Assembly (NCBI RefSeq): GCF_024521635.1 | Contig: NW_026250404.1 | Location: 1,178,001-1,242,000, forward strand | Length of the DNA stretch: 64,000 bases | Source: Tricharina praecox | Lineage: Eukaryota | Reading direction: 5' to 3' | Shown: piece by piece, positions 3,350 to 56,832 of the stretch | Layout of the letters: the number at the start of each line of letters is the position of its first letter | Position numbering within the stretch: the first letter of the stretch is position 1 | Position numbers and translations under genes: made by a program | The notes under the pieces: generated by a model | Seen by the model: the letters and a program-made list of their open reading frames with translations, nothing else | Database searches by the model: none | Told to the model about the DNA's origin: nothing

Positions 3350-5035
3350 CTATTTCTTGCAGTGCCTCATCTCCAGCCACCTCAGAGGGGGATACACCAA
3401 AGCGGCCCAGGCCATCATAATGGGCACCCCCAGATCTCCCTTCGCCCTTCTAGCGATTGGCCCTACCCACCAGACCTGGGACATGCCCAGGATGGCACCA
3501 GCCCATCCCACCAGGAAAGCTGCCAACGCGGCGATGCCAACAGGGAGCTTCTCCGGCTTATCCCAATCCTCCCATCTCCATTTACGGTGTCGGCGGAAGA
3601 CGAGCTCGTCGGAAAGTTGGATCGTTACCCAGCCGGCTACCCATGGTCCCATGAGCGCGAGGAAGTTCTCAAAGATTGTGAAGATGCTGTTGCGACCGAC
3701 GATGGCGCAGATCGTGTACACAAGAATGCCAAACACCTGGTACATATGATGTTAGAGCGGCCGAGAGACGTTGGGGTGAGGGGGGTCTCACGGTCCAGAC
3801 TGCACGCGGTACTTTTTCCCAGCCGCGACCCAGGATCTGCCACGCCAGGGCGGAGCTGTAGATGCCGGGAATAGTGTTTGCGACTAAAGATGTCAACCGA
3901 GGACCAGGGAGGAATAGGCGAGAGGAGGGTCACCCACTGGGACCTAGTGCCAGCACTACAGCGCAGAACTTCCCGAATCCACCCAGAGGCGTGTATGCTT
4001 CCGCCATCATGGCACCTGGACTGACGCTTAACGCATCCCCCCACTCGATCTTCGAAGCCGCACCCGAGGCGAGCCCAACGCCAATGAGCTCGGAGAAGAG
4101 GAGACCCAAACACACGCCGATGTGTGACATCGTTCCCACAACAGCCCGTGGCATGGTCTCGGAGTAGTAGACGAAGTAGTCGGCCGAGCACATACTCCAG
4201 ATAAACGCCGTGTTGAAGACGACGAAGAAGAAGCTGATTTGGTTCCCACGGATGACGTCGGGTGTGCCTAGGGACGGCGCTGTTGTGTTGAAGTTGGGCC
4301 CCGCACTGCCGATCATGATGAAATAGACGATGAGTGAGGGGATCATAGCGTACCTACAAATAAGTTAGATATGTTGTCGCAAAGATGGCAGCGGCTGACC
4401 CGACTGACTGACCGTTCGTAGACGTGGAAGACTCTCATTCCGACCACACAGACCACCATCACAACGATTCCCGCAATGATCACCCCCACGACAACGCTCA
4501 TCTTTCCATCCGTCGAAACCGCAGACAATATCTGCCCCGTAATCAATGCCGCCAACAGCCCATACCCCAGAGTTCCAATCAGCTGCAAGCAAGCGCAAAG
4601 CTTAGCCGGCCACCACCCAAACACGAAGCGCAAGATAACCATGGTCCTATTCCCGCTCTTGGGACCCAGGCCAGATATATACGCCGGGCCGACCGCACCG
4701 AGGATATTCCCAAACAGACACAGCAGGGCGGAATCCCTGAACGAGAGCCTGAAGACCCACGGCCCGAGCATACCGACGAGGGTATTATTCGCGACGAGAT
4801 TGATGGAGAACCAGCTGAGTGCGATCTGTACAGTCCCGAACAGCGACACCGGGTTGCGGTCGCTCGGAGGCACTCGCTGGATCCCGCGGGCTTCGACGCC
4901 GAAGCGGTCCTCCCATCCTTCGATGCGCTCGAGGAGTGTGCGCGAGCTACTGGATCCGTCCGGGAGTCCAATGTGAGGAAGCGGCGTCTTGCTCGGTGTC
5001 GGCTGCCGCTCGAGATTGGTGGGAGTGACCTCCAT
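3350..5035 (-). CDS. Purine-cytosine permease / NCS1 family transporter (Fcy2/Tpn1-like); introns 4354-4412, 3884-3937, 3737-3791
   Basis: Motifs GVEARGIQRVP, GPKSGNRTMVILRFVFGWW, ADYFVY, FENFLALMG, LPVGIAALAAF and YPPLRWLE; canonical splice sites join the four ORF pieces in frame. Confidence 0.92.
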
Positions 5036-9041: not shown

Positions 9042-10754
9042 ATGGCGCTTCAGACCGGCTATCGATCGTCGACCACGGCGGTGCAGCAGCACGGCACGAC
9101 GGAGGTGCGGCCTCGTCGCCGGCCACGGCACTCGGAGCTCCCGCCGCTTCACACCAGCTTCTCGTCGCCAGTCCGCTCATCCGTGATCCACCCCCCGGCG
9201 CCGGTCACGGTCGAATACTACGCGCCGCAATACCCGGCTGCGGCGGCCCAGCGAGCACTGCCCGCCGGTTGGTCGTCGTCGTATCCACAGCTGCCGCCGA
9301 ATGAATCTCCGCAGCTGCTACCGCCACCATATCCGAAACATCGCCGATTTCCCACCCTTCCTCCGCCTGGGTTCCGTACCCTGCCCAACGGAGAGAACCC
9401 TTACAACTTGGCATCGAGGCCTACATTTATTGCAACGATCCCTCCGCCTCCAGCAGTGTGGGAACGGGAGGATTATGTTCCATTCGGAAGCCATAATCCT
9501 CTAGCTCCAACTCTAGCTTTGGCTCCGGAAACATTACCACTGATTCCCAGCCGGCCATCCCGTACCGATTCGACAAAGTCGGGTTCGGTCCAGGATTTGG
9601 CAGAGGAGATTGCCGCGATGGTGCAGGCAGAGATCGACGAGATAGAGCAAGAACTTCTGGCACGAGGAGCAGCGATACCCCCTCGAGATGGCCAGAGGTT
9701 AGCGGTGGAAACTGACGTTCACTCTGCCGTCTCGGCAAAGCTCCTCGCGCCTTTCAATGCCGTATACGCATACGCCGAGGTGAGCGATCATGATGAGCAC
9801 ACGAACGAAGATCCTGCTTCAGCCAATGGAAATAGATCGTCCCCCTCGTCGTCCGTATCTGATCGTTCCACTCGTTCGCTGGCCTCGTTCTTTGCAAGAC
9901 GCGACTCGTCGGATACATTCTCCAATTGCACTCGCCCGCCTTCGGTGGCATCGCTCGCGGATATTGAAGACTACAAAGTTAAAGTCGCTGGTGTTTCACT
10001 GGCCTTACCTGGGATCGCCTGTCCGAAGGAAGTCCAGGATGCCCCTGATAATTTTCGACACGCGGACAGTACTAAAGAAGCTACGGAACCTCTATACACG
10101 CGGCAACCACTAGTTGTATCCCCTTTGTGCTCGCCTACTTCATCGAACCCTCCGCCTACGACTACTACCGTCGAAGGCCAGCCCGACTACCGAAGGTACA
10201 TGGAAAAGATACCGTCGCCTCTTTCAGCTCCTCCGCTCCCAAATATTCCTTCTCCTCCGCCACCGATGCGTTTACCTCCTCCTCCTCCTCCTCCCTCTTA
10301 CCCGCCTCCACCGCCTCCTCTGCGTTTACATCCGCCTCCGCCTCCTCCCTCTTATCCGCCTCCGCCGCCTCCAAACATTGCACCCGCGTCGTTAGTCACG
10401 ACACCCACACCGGTCGCCTGCGATTCCACGTTCCTGATCCCCCAAACGCCAATCGAATCCTCCGCCGAATCCGAAGTTACGAAGACTCCGGAACCAGACT
10501 CAGATAATCATCTCAGTCTTTTCAGCCTGGTCCGTCAGACGTTGACGTTCGCCGAGAATCTATGGACCGATCTCGACGAGGAGAACGTTTTTAAGGATAA
10601 CGACGATAAATGCAGCATGATGACAACAACAACAACAACAACGGAAAAGGTCACCACGACAACACAAACGTCAGAGATAAAGAGGATATCTACAATTCGA
10701 CGAGTCGCCACCATCCGGCGAAAGCGGCGGGAAGACTCGACCTCGACCGCTTGA
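9042..10754 (+). CDS. Hypothetical proline-rich, largely disordered protein (570 aa) with a short acidic helix and PPxY motifs
   Basis: Single 570-codon ORF from ATG; polyproline repeats (PPPPPPPSYPPPPPP twice); helix VQDLAEEIAAMVQAEIDEIEQELL; T-rich 3' flank. No family recognised. Confidence 0.7.
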   Translation: MALQTGYRSSTTAVQQHGTTEVRPRRRPRHSELPPLHTSFSSPVRSSVIHPPAPVTVEYYAPQYPAAAAQRALPAGWSSSYPQLPPNESPQLLPPPYPKHRRFPTLPPPGFRTLPNGENPYNLASRPTFIATIPPPPAVWEREDYVPFGSHNPLAPTLALAPETLPLIPSRPSRTDSTKSGSVQDLAEEIAAMVQAEIDEIEQELLARGAAIPPRDGQRLAVETDVHSAVSAKLLAPFNAVYAYAEVSDHDEHTNEDPASANGNRSSPSSSVSDRSTRSLASFFARRDSSDTFSNCTRPPSVASLADIEDYKVKVAGVSLALPGIACPKEVQDAPDNFRHADSTKEATEPLYTRQPLVVSPLCSPTSSNPPPTTTTVEGQPDYRRYMEKIPSPLSAPPLPNIPSPPPPMRLPPPPPPPSYPPPPPPLRLHPPPPPPSYPPPPPPNIAPASLVTTPTPVACDSTFLIPQTPIESSAESEVTKTPEPDSDNHLSLFSLVRQTLTFAENLWTDLDEENVFKDNDDKCSMMTTTTTTTEKVTTTTQTSEIKRISTIRRVATIRRKRREDSTSTA

Positions 10755-19154: not shown

Positions 19155-19235
19155 TGATTCAGCCGGGATTTGAACCCGGGTCGGGCGCAGAATGCTGGAT
19201 GGCAAGCGCCCATGATACCCCTACACTACTGAATC
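19155..19235 (-). tRNA. tRNA-Gly(GCC) with a 10-nt intron (19190-19199)
   Basis: Minus-strand cloverleaf: GATTCAG TA GTG-TAGGGGTAT-CAT G GGCGC TT GCC A [TCCAGCATTC] T GCGCC CGAC CCGGG TTCAAAT CCCGG CTGAATC A. All stems pair; T-rich tract downstream. Confidence 0.9.
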
Positions 19236-48468: not shown

Positions 48469-50530
48469 CTACGGAGAGCACCCCTTCCACTCCGGCTCAT
48501 TATCATATTCACCGTCGTCTTCACTTCCACTCGTATCTCCGTCCTCATCCTCATCATCCTCCTCATCCTCCTCATCCTCGCCTCCCTCTTCATCGTCATC
48601 TTCCTCATCACTCTCCCCATCCTCAAGCTTCTCCATCCCAAACTCCCCGACCAAGTCCCACCGATCACCCTTCGCAGAAGCACTAACATATTTAACGAAC
48701 TTCAGCACACCCTGGTCGCGCAACGCAAGGCTGAGAGAGTTCCATCCAGGGTAGTTAACAAACAGCACTCCATCCTCTTCCTCATCTCCTCCAGCCTTGT
48801 ATACCGCGGGATCATTGGTGGGATCATCGTCTTCCGCAGCCATATACATCTCGTATCCTCCAAGAGTGCGGGCGGAGTCGTCGAACCGCTTCTCCTTCTC
48901 TTCTCGAACGAAATCCGGGTTGAGCCTGCTCTTACCCTTGCCCTTGGCTTTCTTTTTCTCCTTCTTTTTCATACCTTCTTCCTCCTCAGGATTAGGGGAT
49001 TCCCAGCCAGTAGTAGGCGTGAGGTTGAGAGTGAGCTCCAACTGCATGGGGTTATCTTCGGTGGCGGGAGAAGATGAGCTCAATCCTGTAGCCAGTGTGT
49101 AATCCATTCCTCGCCGGAACCGTCGTGCAAGAATGTTGCGAGATGTCAGTTTTAGTCCAGTGGCGTGTTGGATCAGTTTCTTGAACTGTGGCGAAGGAAG
49201 GAGAACGGTGACGAGTTCTTCAAGCGGAGTCATCCCCTTGCCGCCGCTAGAGGACTGTAGGTAGAGGTATTTCTGCTTATGCGGTGGTACGGCGACGGGC
49301 CAAGTGCTCGGCTTGCCATCGTTCGACTCAATGTACTCTCGCAGCGGCTTCTCAAAAGTGTTGCGTAGAAATGATGAGATCTGTATCGCCGAATCGCCCG
49401 CAAACTGCTCTGCTAGCTGTTCGAGGGTAGCGGGCGTCAAGAACGTCGGGTGGATATATTTGAGCAAGAAGTCGATCTCTTCTGGTGAGAACGCATCATC
49501 GTCGTCTTCATCTTCCTCCTTGCCCTTCCCTTTTTTGTCCACCTGCTTGTATGACACCACCTGCGGCTGTGGCCGGTCATAGCAATCACTCTTGGTTTGC
49601 AAGCTCGCTAGCGAACTCTTCTTGCCCAGCTCTTCTTCCAGCCCTTCGATGAAACCGTCTTCGCCGCGCTGTGGAATGTGAAACCACCCACTGATTGCCA
49701 TTCTAGTACGCTCGGTTCCATCTTCGGGATCGTAAACCTCCTCGACATCGTGAAAGCTCTCGCCGGGCACAACCTTAAAGAACGCTAACTGATTCCAAGC
49801 AGGAGGACAAACGCGTGACCACTCTGCCGTCGGCACTTTCGTCCCGTCGTCCGCCAATTCCGTAGGATACAGCCGTAGCGCACCTCCCCATTCAGGCCTC
49901 CACGGCTCGTCCTCGCTGCCACACAGGTAGAGGATGTAGCTCACTCTGCGACTGCCAATGACATCGTCGTGCGTGAGTAGGTGGCATCCGGGTGTGTAAA
50001 CATTGATGGCCATATCCGTCTTCGTGCCGCTCAATGGTCCACATCCGGAGACAGCGCACACATAGTCGCGGAATTTCTGGGAGTATAGCGCATCGCGGAG
50101 GCGGCGGAGCGAAGGGAGCTTTGCGGCAAGCTCCTGTGGAAGCCCGGAGAGGTTGGCGAGATCGCCCGTCTGGTGTAGCCGGTAGATGTCGGTTTCTTTC
50201 GCTGTGAAGGAGAGGTGCGTGAGAATCTCGTTCTTGACTGAGTGCAGCAGCGGCGATGAAATGAGGGTGGGGATCACGGCGTGCGGGTAGCTAGGCTAGT
50301 GTCAGTGCAATAGCGAGAGGCAGGAGCGGGAGGGACGAAACACACGGGCCAGAATCACGATATTGCGTGTTGTATTCCTTGAGCACATCTTTCTCGAAAA
50401 GACCGGGACGGAAGGAGGATTCGATGTCGTTCTCAATGGGTGCTTTGGTGGGGGACGCGGTTGGCTTTCCCTTCTTTTTGGAGGGCGCCGAAGACGAAGC
50501 TTGCGAGCTTGAGTGCTTTCGTTTGGCCAT
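48469..50530 (-). CDS. TPA1: Prolyl 3,4-dihydroxylase Tpa1/Ofd1 (uS12 hydroxylase, 2OG-Fe(II)); intron 50291-50345
   Basis: KETDIYRLHQTGDLANL, HLLTHDDVIGSRRVSYILYL, WGGALRL, SFHDVEEV, RMAISGWFH; C-terminal Ofd1 domain (RRFRRGMDYTLA, DDDPAVY-like, LRDQGVLKFVKYVS). Confidence 0.97.
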
Positions 50531-52481: not shown

Positions 52482-53144
52482 TTACCTCGCTTTTGCGCCC
52501 GCCGTATTGGCCGCCTCCCTCCTCGTCGCATCCTCGAGTAGCGCAGTGTCGACCGCATTGGCGGGTAGATGAACGTAGCGCACGACCGAGCCACGGATGA
52601 AGACGTTTTTTACTGCCGCCTATTATATCCGTGAGTTAAAGACCTTATCATACCAAATTCGGAGGAGGTGGCTTACAAGGTGCGGATACCGCGCCTCATC
52701 CTTAACCCGGATCTCGTCGAGCTTGATGTTAAGGAATTGGTCGACACTCTTGAGCGTGCCGGTTATGCAGAGATCATTCTTGAGTTCTATTGTAACCTGT
52801 GCCCGTCAACGTCCGTGCTCCGTGCTCAGTTCATCTGCGTTTTGCAGAACAGGCGGGTAGAATAGAAGAAGCCCTCAGAGATAAACTGTGCGTCGTCTCG
52901 TCCTGGCGTCAGCGACCTCACGAGTGAAGACCTGACGCTGCGTCTAAGGATGACTTGCGGAGTTCTCATCATTGGGTGGGTGGGCGAGGTGCGGGTGCGG
53001 GTGAGCGCGGGGTTGAGAAAAAGAACGTACTTCGTGGTCGACGAGGGTCTTGAAGAAACTATACACGTGTAAGCACGGTCAGTTGATGATGAAAGAGGAA
53101 ATATCGTGACTAAGGAAGGGAATGGAATACCTGAAGAAAAGCAT
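52482..53144 (-). CDS. LSM2: U6 snRNA-associated Sm-like protein Lsm2; exons 53144-53131, 53058-53031, 52796-52677, 52619-52482 (absent from the ORF track)
   Basis: Manual splicing gives MLFFSFFKTLVDHEVTIELKNDLCITGTLKSVDQFLNIKLDEIRVKDEARYPHLAAVKNVFIRGSVVRYVHLPANAVDTALLEDATRREAANTAGAKAR*, a typical Lsm2 sequence. Confidence 0.97.
52872..52976 (-). ncRNA. Intronic box C/D snoRNA in LSM2 intron 2 (candidate U6 guide)
   Basis: Perfect C box ATGATGA (52972-52966), D box CTGA (52878-52875), CCC/GGG terminal stem and internal hairpin GCGTCAG...CTGACGC. The host intron is 234 nt against 57 and 72 nt for the other two. Confidence 0.75.
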
Positions 53145-54885: not shown

Positions 54886-55056
54886 CTGAGGGCTTCATAC
54901 TTGGTTCACTCAATTCTCCACGATTGTTTGACTCTGTTGGGCACTGAGGGCTTGTTCCGCATTCGCACATCTGTTACTATTGGGTTTCCGAGGGCTTCAT
55001 TCTTAACGATCCGTTAGAACTGAAACTGAGGGCTTAACGTTCCGATCCGAGGGCTT
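54886..55056 (+). promoter_or_regulatory. Array of five CYGAGGGCTT motifs upstream of the nucleolin ATG
   Basis: Copies start at 54886, 54944, 54988, 55026 and 55047, all in the same orientation with unrelated spacers. Function unknown. Confidence 0.6.
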
Positions 55057-55147
55057 TTCCACATTTTTTCCACTCACATCCCATCTCTTCTCTACCGCCT
55101 TTCCCCACAACCAGGTTTGTATATTCATACAATCTAACACCGCAGTA

Positions 55148-56832
55148 ATGGGTCCTACTACAAAGAAAGCTACCAAGCCCGCCAAGGGCGCCGACAAGAA
55201 GGTTCTCTCCACCGTCAAGAAGGCTGGCATCACCAAGCCTGCGAAGGAGGCCGCGAAGACCAAGGAAGTCGCCAAGAAGGCCGTCGCCGCTGTCACGGAG
55301 AAGAAGTCCGACAAGAAGGACAAGAAGAAGAAGGTCGTCAAGGAGCCCACTCCCGAGCCTGAGTCCGACTCTGAGTCCGAGGATGACTCTGACGATTCGT
55401 CCGACTCTGAGTCCGAGCAGGAGGAGGTGAAGCCCGCCGCCAAGGCCGTTGCTAAGCCCGCCGCGAAGAAGGCCGACACCAGCGACTCCGACTCCGACTC
55501 CGACTCTGACTCTGAGTCTGAGGACGAGAAGCCCGCTGCTAAGAAGGAGGTCGCCAAGGTCGCCTCCAAGGAGGACTCTTCCGACGACTCCGACTCCGAC
55601 AGCGACGAGGAGATGGCCGATGCCGATGCACCCAAGGCTGAGGCCAAGAAGGCCGACTCCAGCGACTCCGACTCCGACTCTGACTCCGAGTCCGAGGACG
55701 AGAAGCCTGCCGCTAAGGCTGCTGCCGGAGCCAAGAAGACTGAGGTATGTCACTCTCCACCACCGTGTTCGGGCGCATGTTACTGACATTGCATAGACTT
55801 CCGACTCCGACTCTTCCGACTCCGATGACAGCGCTTCCGACTCTTCCGAGGAGGCCTCTCCCAAAGAGGACAACAAGAAGCGCAAGGCTGAGGTCGCTGC
55901 TTCCCCCGTCCAGAAGAAGTCCAAGAAGGAGGATGAGCCTGTTGAGGAGAACTCGAAGAACCTCTTCGTTGGTTCCCTGTCCTGGAACGTCGACGACGAC
56001 TGGCTGCGAAGCGAGTTCGAGACTTTCGGAGAGCTCACCCGCTGCACCGTCATGTCCGACCGTGCCACTGGTCGCTCCAAGGGGTATATTCATCCATTGT
56101 CTTGAACGTTAATCAGTGCTGATTTTGTTCCAGTTTCGGATACGTTGAGTACAGCACCGCCGCTTCTGCCAAGGCCGCTATGGACGCCATGCAGGGTAAG
56201 GAGCTCGACGGACGCACCCTGAACGTTGACTTCTCTACTCCTCGCCCCGAGCGCCCCGCTCAGAACGACCGTGCTTCCAAGTTCGGTGACCAGCGCAGCA
56301 CCGAGAGCGACACCGTCTTCGTTGCCAACTTGAGCTTCGAGGTTGACGAGGACATCGTCCGTAACGAGTTCGAGAAGTTCGGAGACATCATTGGCCTCCG
56401 TCTCCCCACTGACGCGTAATTACCCCCTTCTGAACAACTTGACCTGTCCGGATGCTAACTATTGGCAGTGAGTCTGGTCAGCGCAAGGGTTTCGGTTACA
56501 TCCAGTTCGGTTCCATCGCCGAGGCCAAGGAGGCTGTCGAGGGTATGTCTGGTGCCTTCGTCAACGGACGTGCCATCCGCACCGACTTCTCTACTCCCCG
56601 TGACCCCAGCAGCAGCGGAGGCCGAGGAGGAGGCCGTGGTGGCCGTGGTGGCTTCAACGACCGCGGTGGACGTGGCGGTGGTCGTGGCGGCCGTGGTGGC
56701 TTCGGTGACCGTGGTGGACGTGGCGGTCGTGGTGGCTTCAGTGACCGTGGTGGCGGCCGTGGCGGTCGTGGCGGAACCACCAACCGCGGAGGCTTCGGGG
56801 ACTTCAAGGGAAAGAAGGTCTCCTTTGATTAA
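55148..56832 (+). CDS. NSR1: Nucleolin-like protein Nsr1/Gar2; introns 55745-55796, 56084-56133, 56416-56468
   Basis: Alternating basic and acidic Ser-rich tracts, two RRMs (LFVGSLSWNVDDDWL / KGFGYVEY; VFVANLSF / KGFGYIQF), RGG tail and GKKVSFD end. Confidence 0.96.

Follow-up and report, generated by a model that had tools for sequence, protein, structure and literature searches.

The window analyzed in this study, a 64,000-nt stretch of Tricharina praecox DNA, carries the gene LSM2 on its minus strand at 53144-52482, where four exons encode a 99-aa protein. The identity of the gene was assigned through a match to Pfam PF01423, and exon 3 matches a Tricharina praecox protein at 100% identity and Geopyxis and Morchella proteins at 90%. 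A predicted box C/D snoRNA lies within the second intron. The parts of the host gene are as follows:

53131..53144, minus: LSM2 exon 1, coding part, with the ATG at 53144 (contig joints and gene model)
53059..53130, minus: LSM2 intron 1, 72 nt (joint in runs X1 and X2)
53031..53058, minus: LSM2 exon 2, 28 nt
52797..53030, minus: LSM2 intron 2, 234 nt, the snoRNA host (joint in X1 and X2)
52677..52796, minus: LSM2 exon 3, 120 nt
52620..52676, minus: LSM2 intron 3, 57 nt
52482..52619, minus: LSM2 exon 4, coding part through the stop codon

The elements of the snoRNA, with their state in the three sequences compared (the window and the homologous loci L014 and L022), are listed below:

52872..52976, minus: predicted box C/D snoRNA, ~105 nt, spanning both terminal-stem arms (from boxes and conservation; ends predicted)
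52974..52976, minus: terminal stem 5' arm CCC, pairing with 52874-52872; C-G changed to U-A in L022
52966..52972, minus: C box ATGATGA, invariant in all three sequences
52944..52954, minus: D' antisense element GTCATCCTTAG, forming an 11-bp perfect duplex with the species' own U6; invariant in all three
52939..52942, minus: degenerate D' box CGCA, invariant; paired to the C' box by C-G and G-C in each of the three
52906..52938, minus: internal hairpin between D' and C', with compensatory changes
52898..52904, minus: degenerate C' box AGGACGA (GGGACGA in L022)
52880..52891, minus: D-side element GCACAGTTTATC, named as a second guide by the original prediction; present, not conserved
52875..52878, minus: D box CTGA, invariant in all three sequences
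52872..52874, minus: terminal stem 3' arm GGG

The host intron and its predicted box C/D RNA

The second intron of LSM2 is long for this gene (234 nt, against 72 nt for intron 1 and 57 nt for intron 3). All three splice joints, with 72, 234 and 57 nt skipped, were found in contigs from both sequencing runs (X1 and X2); the RNA nature of these runs, none of which is recorded as RNA, is a tool's guess and they may hold DNA, while the spliced joints fit RNA. One X1 contig (52769-53048) crosses the unspliced intron 2, which shows the presence of this form and not its level; contig depth is no measure of intron retention, and contigs cannot show RNA ends. Introns 1 and 3 had zero contig cover, which says nothing on their retention. 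The branch-point A of intron 2 is likely at 52806, 68 nt past the D box, judging from a TTGAC word.

The boxes, terminal stem and internal hairpin of the proposed intronic snoRNA were all found, and the boxes are kept in two related fungi, in agreement with the original prediction. In all three sequences the C box lies near the 5' end and the D box near the 3' end, and a terminal stem joins the two ends, with one clear compensatory change across the set. The stem-forming region is extended by GAGA at 52967-52964, which ends and follows the C box and pairs with TCTC at 52881-52878, thus lengthening stem II; the TCTC side includes the last bases of GCACAGTTTATC, whose pairing with the C-box GAGA is kept in all three sequences. 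A C box and D box pair arose in 31 of 20000 shuffles of intron 2.

The hairpin at 52938-52906 has a predicted energy of -17.2 kcal/mol, and the whole 131-nt stretch folds no better than its shuffles (z -0.04). In the RNAalifold structure of the protein-free RNA, some of the guide bases are paired to the C' region, so that the free snoRNA may hide its guide in this way. One strand of the hairpin carries AG-GTC and the other GGTCGCT, with a U-U mismatch and a bulged G, and these are kept in all three sequences (the motif was spotted by eye after shifting an insertion in L022); AG-GTC/GGTCGCT is possibly a candidate protein-binding motif.

Searches with Rfam returned only a tRNA for the whole window. 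For the snoRNA region no family reached its gathering score, none that was relevant appeared at E values up to 10, and the local matches were at chance level; the check for a known rRNA-guide family that would explain the antisense element thus gave no match.

Conservation and reach of the LSM2-hosted RNA

Homologous genes were collected by scanning metagenomes once with an alignment of 21 fungal Lsm2 sequences, and the best 80 of at least 434 relatives, which hold 62 distinct exon-3 sequences, were compared. Among these best 80, an intron at the intron-2 position was found in three (L014, which equals L015, and L022; two distinct sequences), and all three carry the snoRNA unit. L014 is syntenic with the window. 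From C box to D box, identity to the window is 90/98 (92%) for L014 and 76/97 (78%) for L022, compared with 63-74% and 58-72%, respectively, for intron 1 and the flanks of intron 2; all of these figures come from global alignments, which allow gaps freely. In exon 3, the third codon positions agree at 31/40 (L014) and 20/40 (L022). The conservation centers on the U6 element, where 19 consecutive guide and D' bases are invariant in all three sequences.

Pairing is also retained: 92.8% of the cells in the drawn structure pair, with two-sided changes in 6 of 23 pairs (three sequences only). None of 500 shuffles reached as much, and slid controls paired at 30-49%; the structure was drawn from the same three related sequences, so that these controls lean in its favor and no P value is attached to them. 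The gene structure, boxes, complementarity, conservation and compensatory pairs described here are observations.

The suggestion of a second guide before the D box was not borne out. The D-side element GCACAGTTTATC differs in both L014 and L022, and no target shared by the three sequences was found among U6, U4, 18S, 25S and 5.8S. A double-guide snoRNA was rejected on the ground that no conserved second element lies upstream of D. An exact complement of the D-side element occurs at two other places in the genome, neither with a model match.

A link between the snoRNA and LSM2 throughout Pezizomycotina, which had been implied, did not hold either, as Tuber-like, Peziza-like and other fungal LSM2 loci have no intron 2. 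Altogether, 77 of the 80 loci (best 80 of at least 434) have no intron at this position; many of the 80 are non-fungal or possibly cDNA, and the ranking favors intron-poor genes. However, L016 and L018-L020, with exon 3 identical to Tuber proteins, and L034 (Peziza) are all genomic, keep intron 1 and lack intron 2. One further locus, L073, has an intron a few codons later than the intron-2 position. The LSM2-snoRNA link is thus clade-limited in this sample, with which both gain and loss of intron 2 are compatible.

Wider searches were made with a covariance model (R1) and with patterns. Over 83 sources, consisting of the window, 79 of the 80 LSM2 loci (the duplicate L015 left out) and L093-L095, R1 recovered only its three training sequences and one 14.9-bit match. 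The pattern scan of prokaryotic genomes gave 2 matches, 0 of which were scored by the model, and that of viral contigs gave 70 + 2 matches, with model scores of at most 19.7 bits on the 70; the pattern matches L138, L171 and L172 look like chance on reading. No LSM2 was found in viral contigs. In the species' own genome, a pattern resembling the N. crassa snoRNA CD54 gave one match (L093), equal to the control count and with no D box seen, a CD11-like pattern gave no match, and RF00288 gave none over its cut-off.

Complementarity to U6 and the predicted target base

The element GTCATCCTTAG at 52954-52944, followed by AC-GCAG, was said to be antisense to the U6 internal stem-loop, and absence of the site from the species' own U6 had been named as refuting. 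The genome has a single U6 copy over the cut-off (L001, 93 bits), and this U6 does carry the site: counting from the first base of the Rfam hit, its positions 61-71 are perfectly complementary to the 11-nt element, which is itself kept in the two relatives. A degenerate second U6-like copy (L002; G000:C72:1145597-1145659, minus; 29.5 bits, under the cut-off) keeps ACAGAGA, has an altered AGC triad and is no longer similar beyond the stem-loop 5' strand; it is probably a U6 pseudogene. By comparison with the one intact U6, five U4 copies exceeded the cut-off (L166, L167 and three more, on G000:C83 and C1), with four of them on contig C83, and the two copies compared differ at the 5' ends that pair with U6.

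Chance expectations were assessed with dinucleotide shuffles. An 11-nt perfect U6 match arose in 3/5000 shuffles of the 98-nt C-to-D segment and in 12/5000 of the whole intron, and an 11-nt match to pooled U6, U4, 18S and 25S arose in 396/5000 (~8%). Because the rRNA targets raise the chance expectation to this level, the U6 match alone is weaker evidence, and it is therefore conservation, not the match by itself, that carries the argument. No rRNA match at the guide position is common to the three homologues, and the U6 match is identical in all of them. Genome-wide, the 11-mer has 7 copies (11 for the reversed control), namely the one described here, U6 and five at other places without model support; among the exact copies only that in the LSM2 intron sits 3-30 nt behind a C box. 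Guides of this class pair over 10-21 bp directly before D or D' and address the base at +5; the element agrees with this, offering 11 bp and one unpaired base before D'.

The D' box had been described as degenerate, either TAGA or CGCA, with an uncertain target base. The degeneracy was confirmed, and the uncertainty was narrowed. With TAGA, the guide would be cut to 8 nt, the target would be U68 and the box would misfit with the hairpin, and this reading was rejected; D' is best read as CGCA, on the basis of the following geometry. After the hairpin, all three sequences read C-R-G and then GACGA. In a kink-turn, a 3-nt bulge precedes the C' core. Here a 3-nt bulge, C-R-G at 52905-52903, lies between the hairpin and GA, and its last two bases open the C' box. 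When CGCA is set against C', the contacts are G-A, then A-C where A-G would be usual, and finally the pairs C-G and G-C. The CGCA/AGGACGA pair is invariant except at the R position and has fitting kink-turn spacing, with two departures from consensus in each box, and we infer that it forms a C'/D' kink-turn.

With D' read as CGCA, the D'+5 base at 52947 faces U6 A64, which pairs with U57 to close the 6-nt loop of the stem-loop and is followed by GG. Human U6 is described as having a U64-A70 pair, a methylated A70 and G72 (PMC13109388; PMC5855946), and the predicted target here is likewise the adenosine closing the U6 stem-loop, which in the human RNA stands two bases before G72. The description of S. 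pombe A41 as human A47 (PMC5855946) bears on the numbering: since A41 and A47 show the same offset, S. pombe A64 would correspond to human A70. The predicted target, U6 A64, would thus be the equivalent of both human A70 and S. pombe A64. Against this reading, D' lacks the canonical GA, and the invariant GCAG across it could instead extend the U6 duplex by 4 bp (-23.3 versus -18.0 kcal/mol).

A candidate guide for U6 A64 and its alternatives

Considering these observations together, we hold with good confidence that a single-guide box C/D snoRNA from LSM2 intron 2 directs 2'-O-methylation of U6 A64. In this proposal we infer the mature RNA, the D' register, the methylation and the helper proteins. 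The spliced intron 2 would be debranched and trimmed to a ~105-nt snoRNA, on which Snu13, Nop56, Nop58 and Nop1 would assemble at the canonical C/D motif and at the degenerate C'/D' motif, the latter presumably with a G-C pair in place of U-U, A-C for one sheared A-G and the 3-nt bulge after the hairpin. [quoted passage not shown] The U4 5' end pairs with U6 at ~52-68, and because the guide duplex overlaps this region the snoRNA should act on free U6, before U4/U6 forms; action before U4/U6 assembly has been proposed for S. pombe (PMC10484740). Proteins of the Bmc1/Pof8 type docked on Lsm2-8 would probably assist. The genome encodes a Bin3 domain (54.7 bits; L168, G000:C16) and an xRRM (87.1 bits; L170, G000:C22), and these are candidates for Bmc1 and Pof8/LARP7, respectively.

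The invariance of the D' sequence could be read differently, in that a stable box C/D particle with a non-catalytic, degenerate D'/C' might bind U6 without methylating it, its 11+4-nt pairing chaperoning U6 by keeping the stem-loop open or by competing with U4. The D' sequence is complementary to U6 56-59 and invariant, and the guide duplex, comparable in energy to that with U4 (-22.1 and -24.6 kcal/mol), covers part of the U4 stem II site, both of which would suit such a particle. However, D'+5 falls exactly on the site methylated in human and S. pombe, which a non-catalytic RNA would not need, the C'/D' pairs are kept in all three sequences, and U4/U6 pairing in S. pombe is described as undisturbed by loss of sno530 (PMC10484740); we regard this explanation as improbable. 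Lower still do we place an action of the element mainly in cis on the LSM2 pre-mRNA, where the snoRNP or U6 pairing would alter the rate of intron-2 splicing and tie Lsm2 output to U6 status, a reading that is compatible with a guide role. Here the host does encode a U6-binding subunit, both A64 methylation and sno530 binding in S. pombe need the Pof8-Lsm2-8 contact (PMC10484740), and the X1 contig spans the unspliced intron. Against this, the contig's depth is no retention measure and X1 may hold DNA, snoRNAs of N. crassa are intronic as a rule (PMC2780460), so that hosting needs no special purpose, and 77 of the best 80 of at least 434 LSM2 loci lack intron 2.

That the true target is an rRNA or another RNA, or that the boxes are a chance set and the U6 match a coincidence, seems to us very improbable. 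The pooled shuffles gave an 11-nt match to U6, U4 or rRNA in ~8% of cases, and the target scan covered U6, U4 and the rRNAs, but the three sequences share no rRNA guide match, the U6 match is the same in all, and the conservation is centered on the U6 element.

Several known U6 guides come close to this RNA. Mouse Snord23 is positioned on U6 A70 via its D' box, an assignment based on chimeras below the significance cut-off together with a high RiboMeth-seq score, and a divergent D' (UUGC) is described as working in Snord89 (PMC11863803); an earlier SNORD23 prediction was U64 (PMC5389715). As in SNORD23/Snord23, the D' element of the predicted box C/D RNA in LSM2 would be placed on the stem-loop adenosine (A70 there, A64 here), but the RNA has no Rfam model match and a different host, LSM2, and the likeness is one of predicted function. 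Membership in the SNORD23 Rfam family was rejected, as the covariance-model score was not reached.

Another is S. pombe sno530 (SPNCRNA.530), whose deletion abolishes U6 A64 methylation and which acts with Bmc1-Pof8-Thc1 and Lsm2-8, according to PMC10484740. Compared by description rather than by sequence or locus, the two RNAs share the predicted A64 target, the complementarity (~12 nt in sno530) and divergent C'/D'-like motifs; the C box of sno530 is described as departing from consensus and its fold as atypical, whereas the RNA reported here has canonical C/D boxes and a terminal stem.

Within Pezizomycotina, the box C/D RNA N. crassa CD54 (CD_54; PMC2780460, PMC5824354) likewise directs its D' element at U6 and has a long spacer between D' and C'. 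As described there, CD54 differs in its guide sequence, in being intergenic and in its target, which lies on the stem-loop 5' strand (N. crassa U6-55) and is not A64; membership in CD_54 was rejected since element and target strand differ in a by-eye comparison with the CD54 sequence. N. crassa CD11/snR53 and S. pombe snoZ30/mgU6-47 (RF00288) are likewise fungal box C/D U6 guides, but the U6 sites described for them precede the stem-loop. In their main texts, the surveys of fungal snoRNAs considered here give U6 methylation guides for two upstream sites only (PMC2780460, PMC5824354), and the parts of the A. fumigatus survey considered here report no U6-targeting C/D snoRNA (PMC2377427). In the literature covered, which takes in part of the 55 N. 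crassa sequences, we found no LSM2-hosted snoRNA and no A64/A70 guide in filamentous fungi; an orphan entry among the N. crassa or snoStrip sequences could belong to the same family.

The predicted snoRNA would be a further member of the box C/D U6 guides, a kind already known, with a host gene that suits its job. LSM2 is apt because, as described for S. pombe, both the methylation of A64 and the binding of sno530 require the part of Pof8 that binds Lsm2-8 (PMC10484740), and with it the contact between Pof8 and Lsm2-8. Co-expression of the guide with a U6-binding protein would follow from the gene layout, and a purpose behind it is hypothetical. It is rather unlikely that LSM2 and the A64 guide constitute one regulated unit, in which a single transcript yields both the protein ring and the guide that the ring helps to deliver, and the intron-2 element senses free U6 and tunes LSM2 splicing.

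Fission yeast offers a further point of comparison, in the gene SPCC1620.01c, which we take to be lsm2. It has a 352-nt intron (III:2144357-2144709) with a retention ratio of ~0.25, rising to ~0.38 on heat shock, and the other two introns listed for it have ratios of 0.03-0.04 (PMC10484740). Reads from a snoRNA within the intron could by themselves push a ratio of this kind upward. The exons listed there, of ~102 and 103 nt, do not match the 28 and 120 nt found here, and enrichment of SPCC1620.01c in Bmc1 RIP-seq (logFC 0.85, row 94 of 4202, with many mRNAs higher) is too modest to use. Should a U6 guide be present in the SPCC1620.01c intron as well, this would point to an ancient link that most filamentous fungi have lost.

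The locus provides a candidate guide for the conserved U6 stem-loop adenosine in filamentous fungi, and its canonical C/D boxes, unlike those of sno530, should make it easier to dissect. It also offers a natural C'/D' variant, with a G-C pair in place of U-U, and an invariant hairpin motif that could dock a protein of the Pof8/LARP7 type. Its seat in LSM2 makes it testable whether the choice of a snoRNA host is functionally matched or incidental. The phenotype of its loss is likely to be mild, because U6 snRNP assembly in S. pombe is described as undisturbed by loss of A64 methylation alone (PMC10484740).

Several other features were observed in the window. Two more C-box/D-box pairs with short stems lie at 9790-9862 and 4315-4411 (plus) and are probably due to chance; in the former, a 13-nt complement to 18S 990-1002 overlaps its own D box, so that it cannot be a normal guide. 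Ser(GCT) is the ARAGORN call for a tRNA at 19155-19235 (minus), for which the Rfam alignment points to GCC as the anticodon, with a short loop insertion or intron. About 2 kb from LSM2, a gene at 55007-56832 (plus) has acidic serine-rich repeats, an RRM and a Gly-Arg tail, and is presumably like nucleolin/Nsr1. Lastly, a 608-aa frame at 48469-50295 (minus) looks like what we assume to be a Tpa1/OGFOD1-type prolyl hydroxylase.
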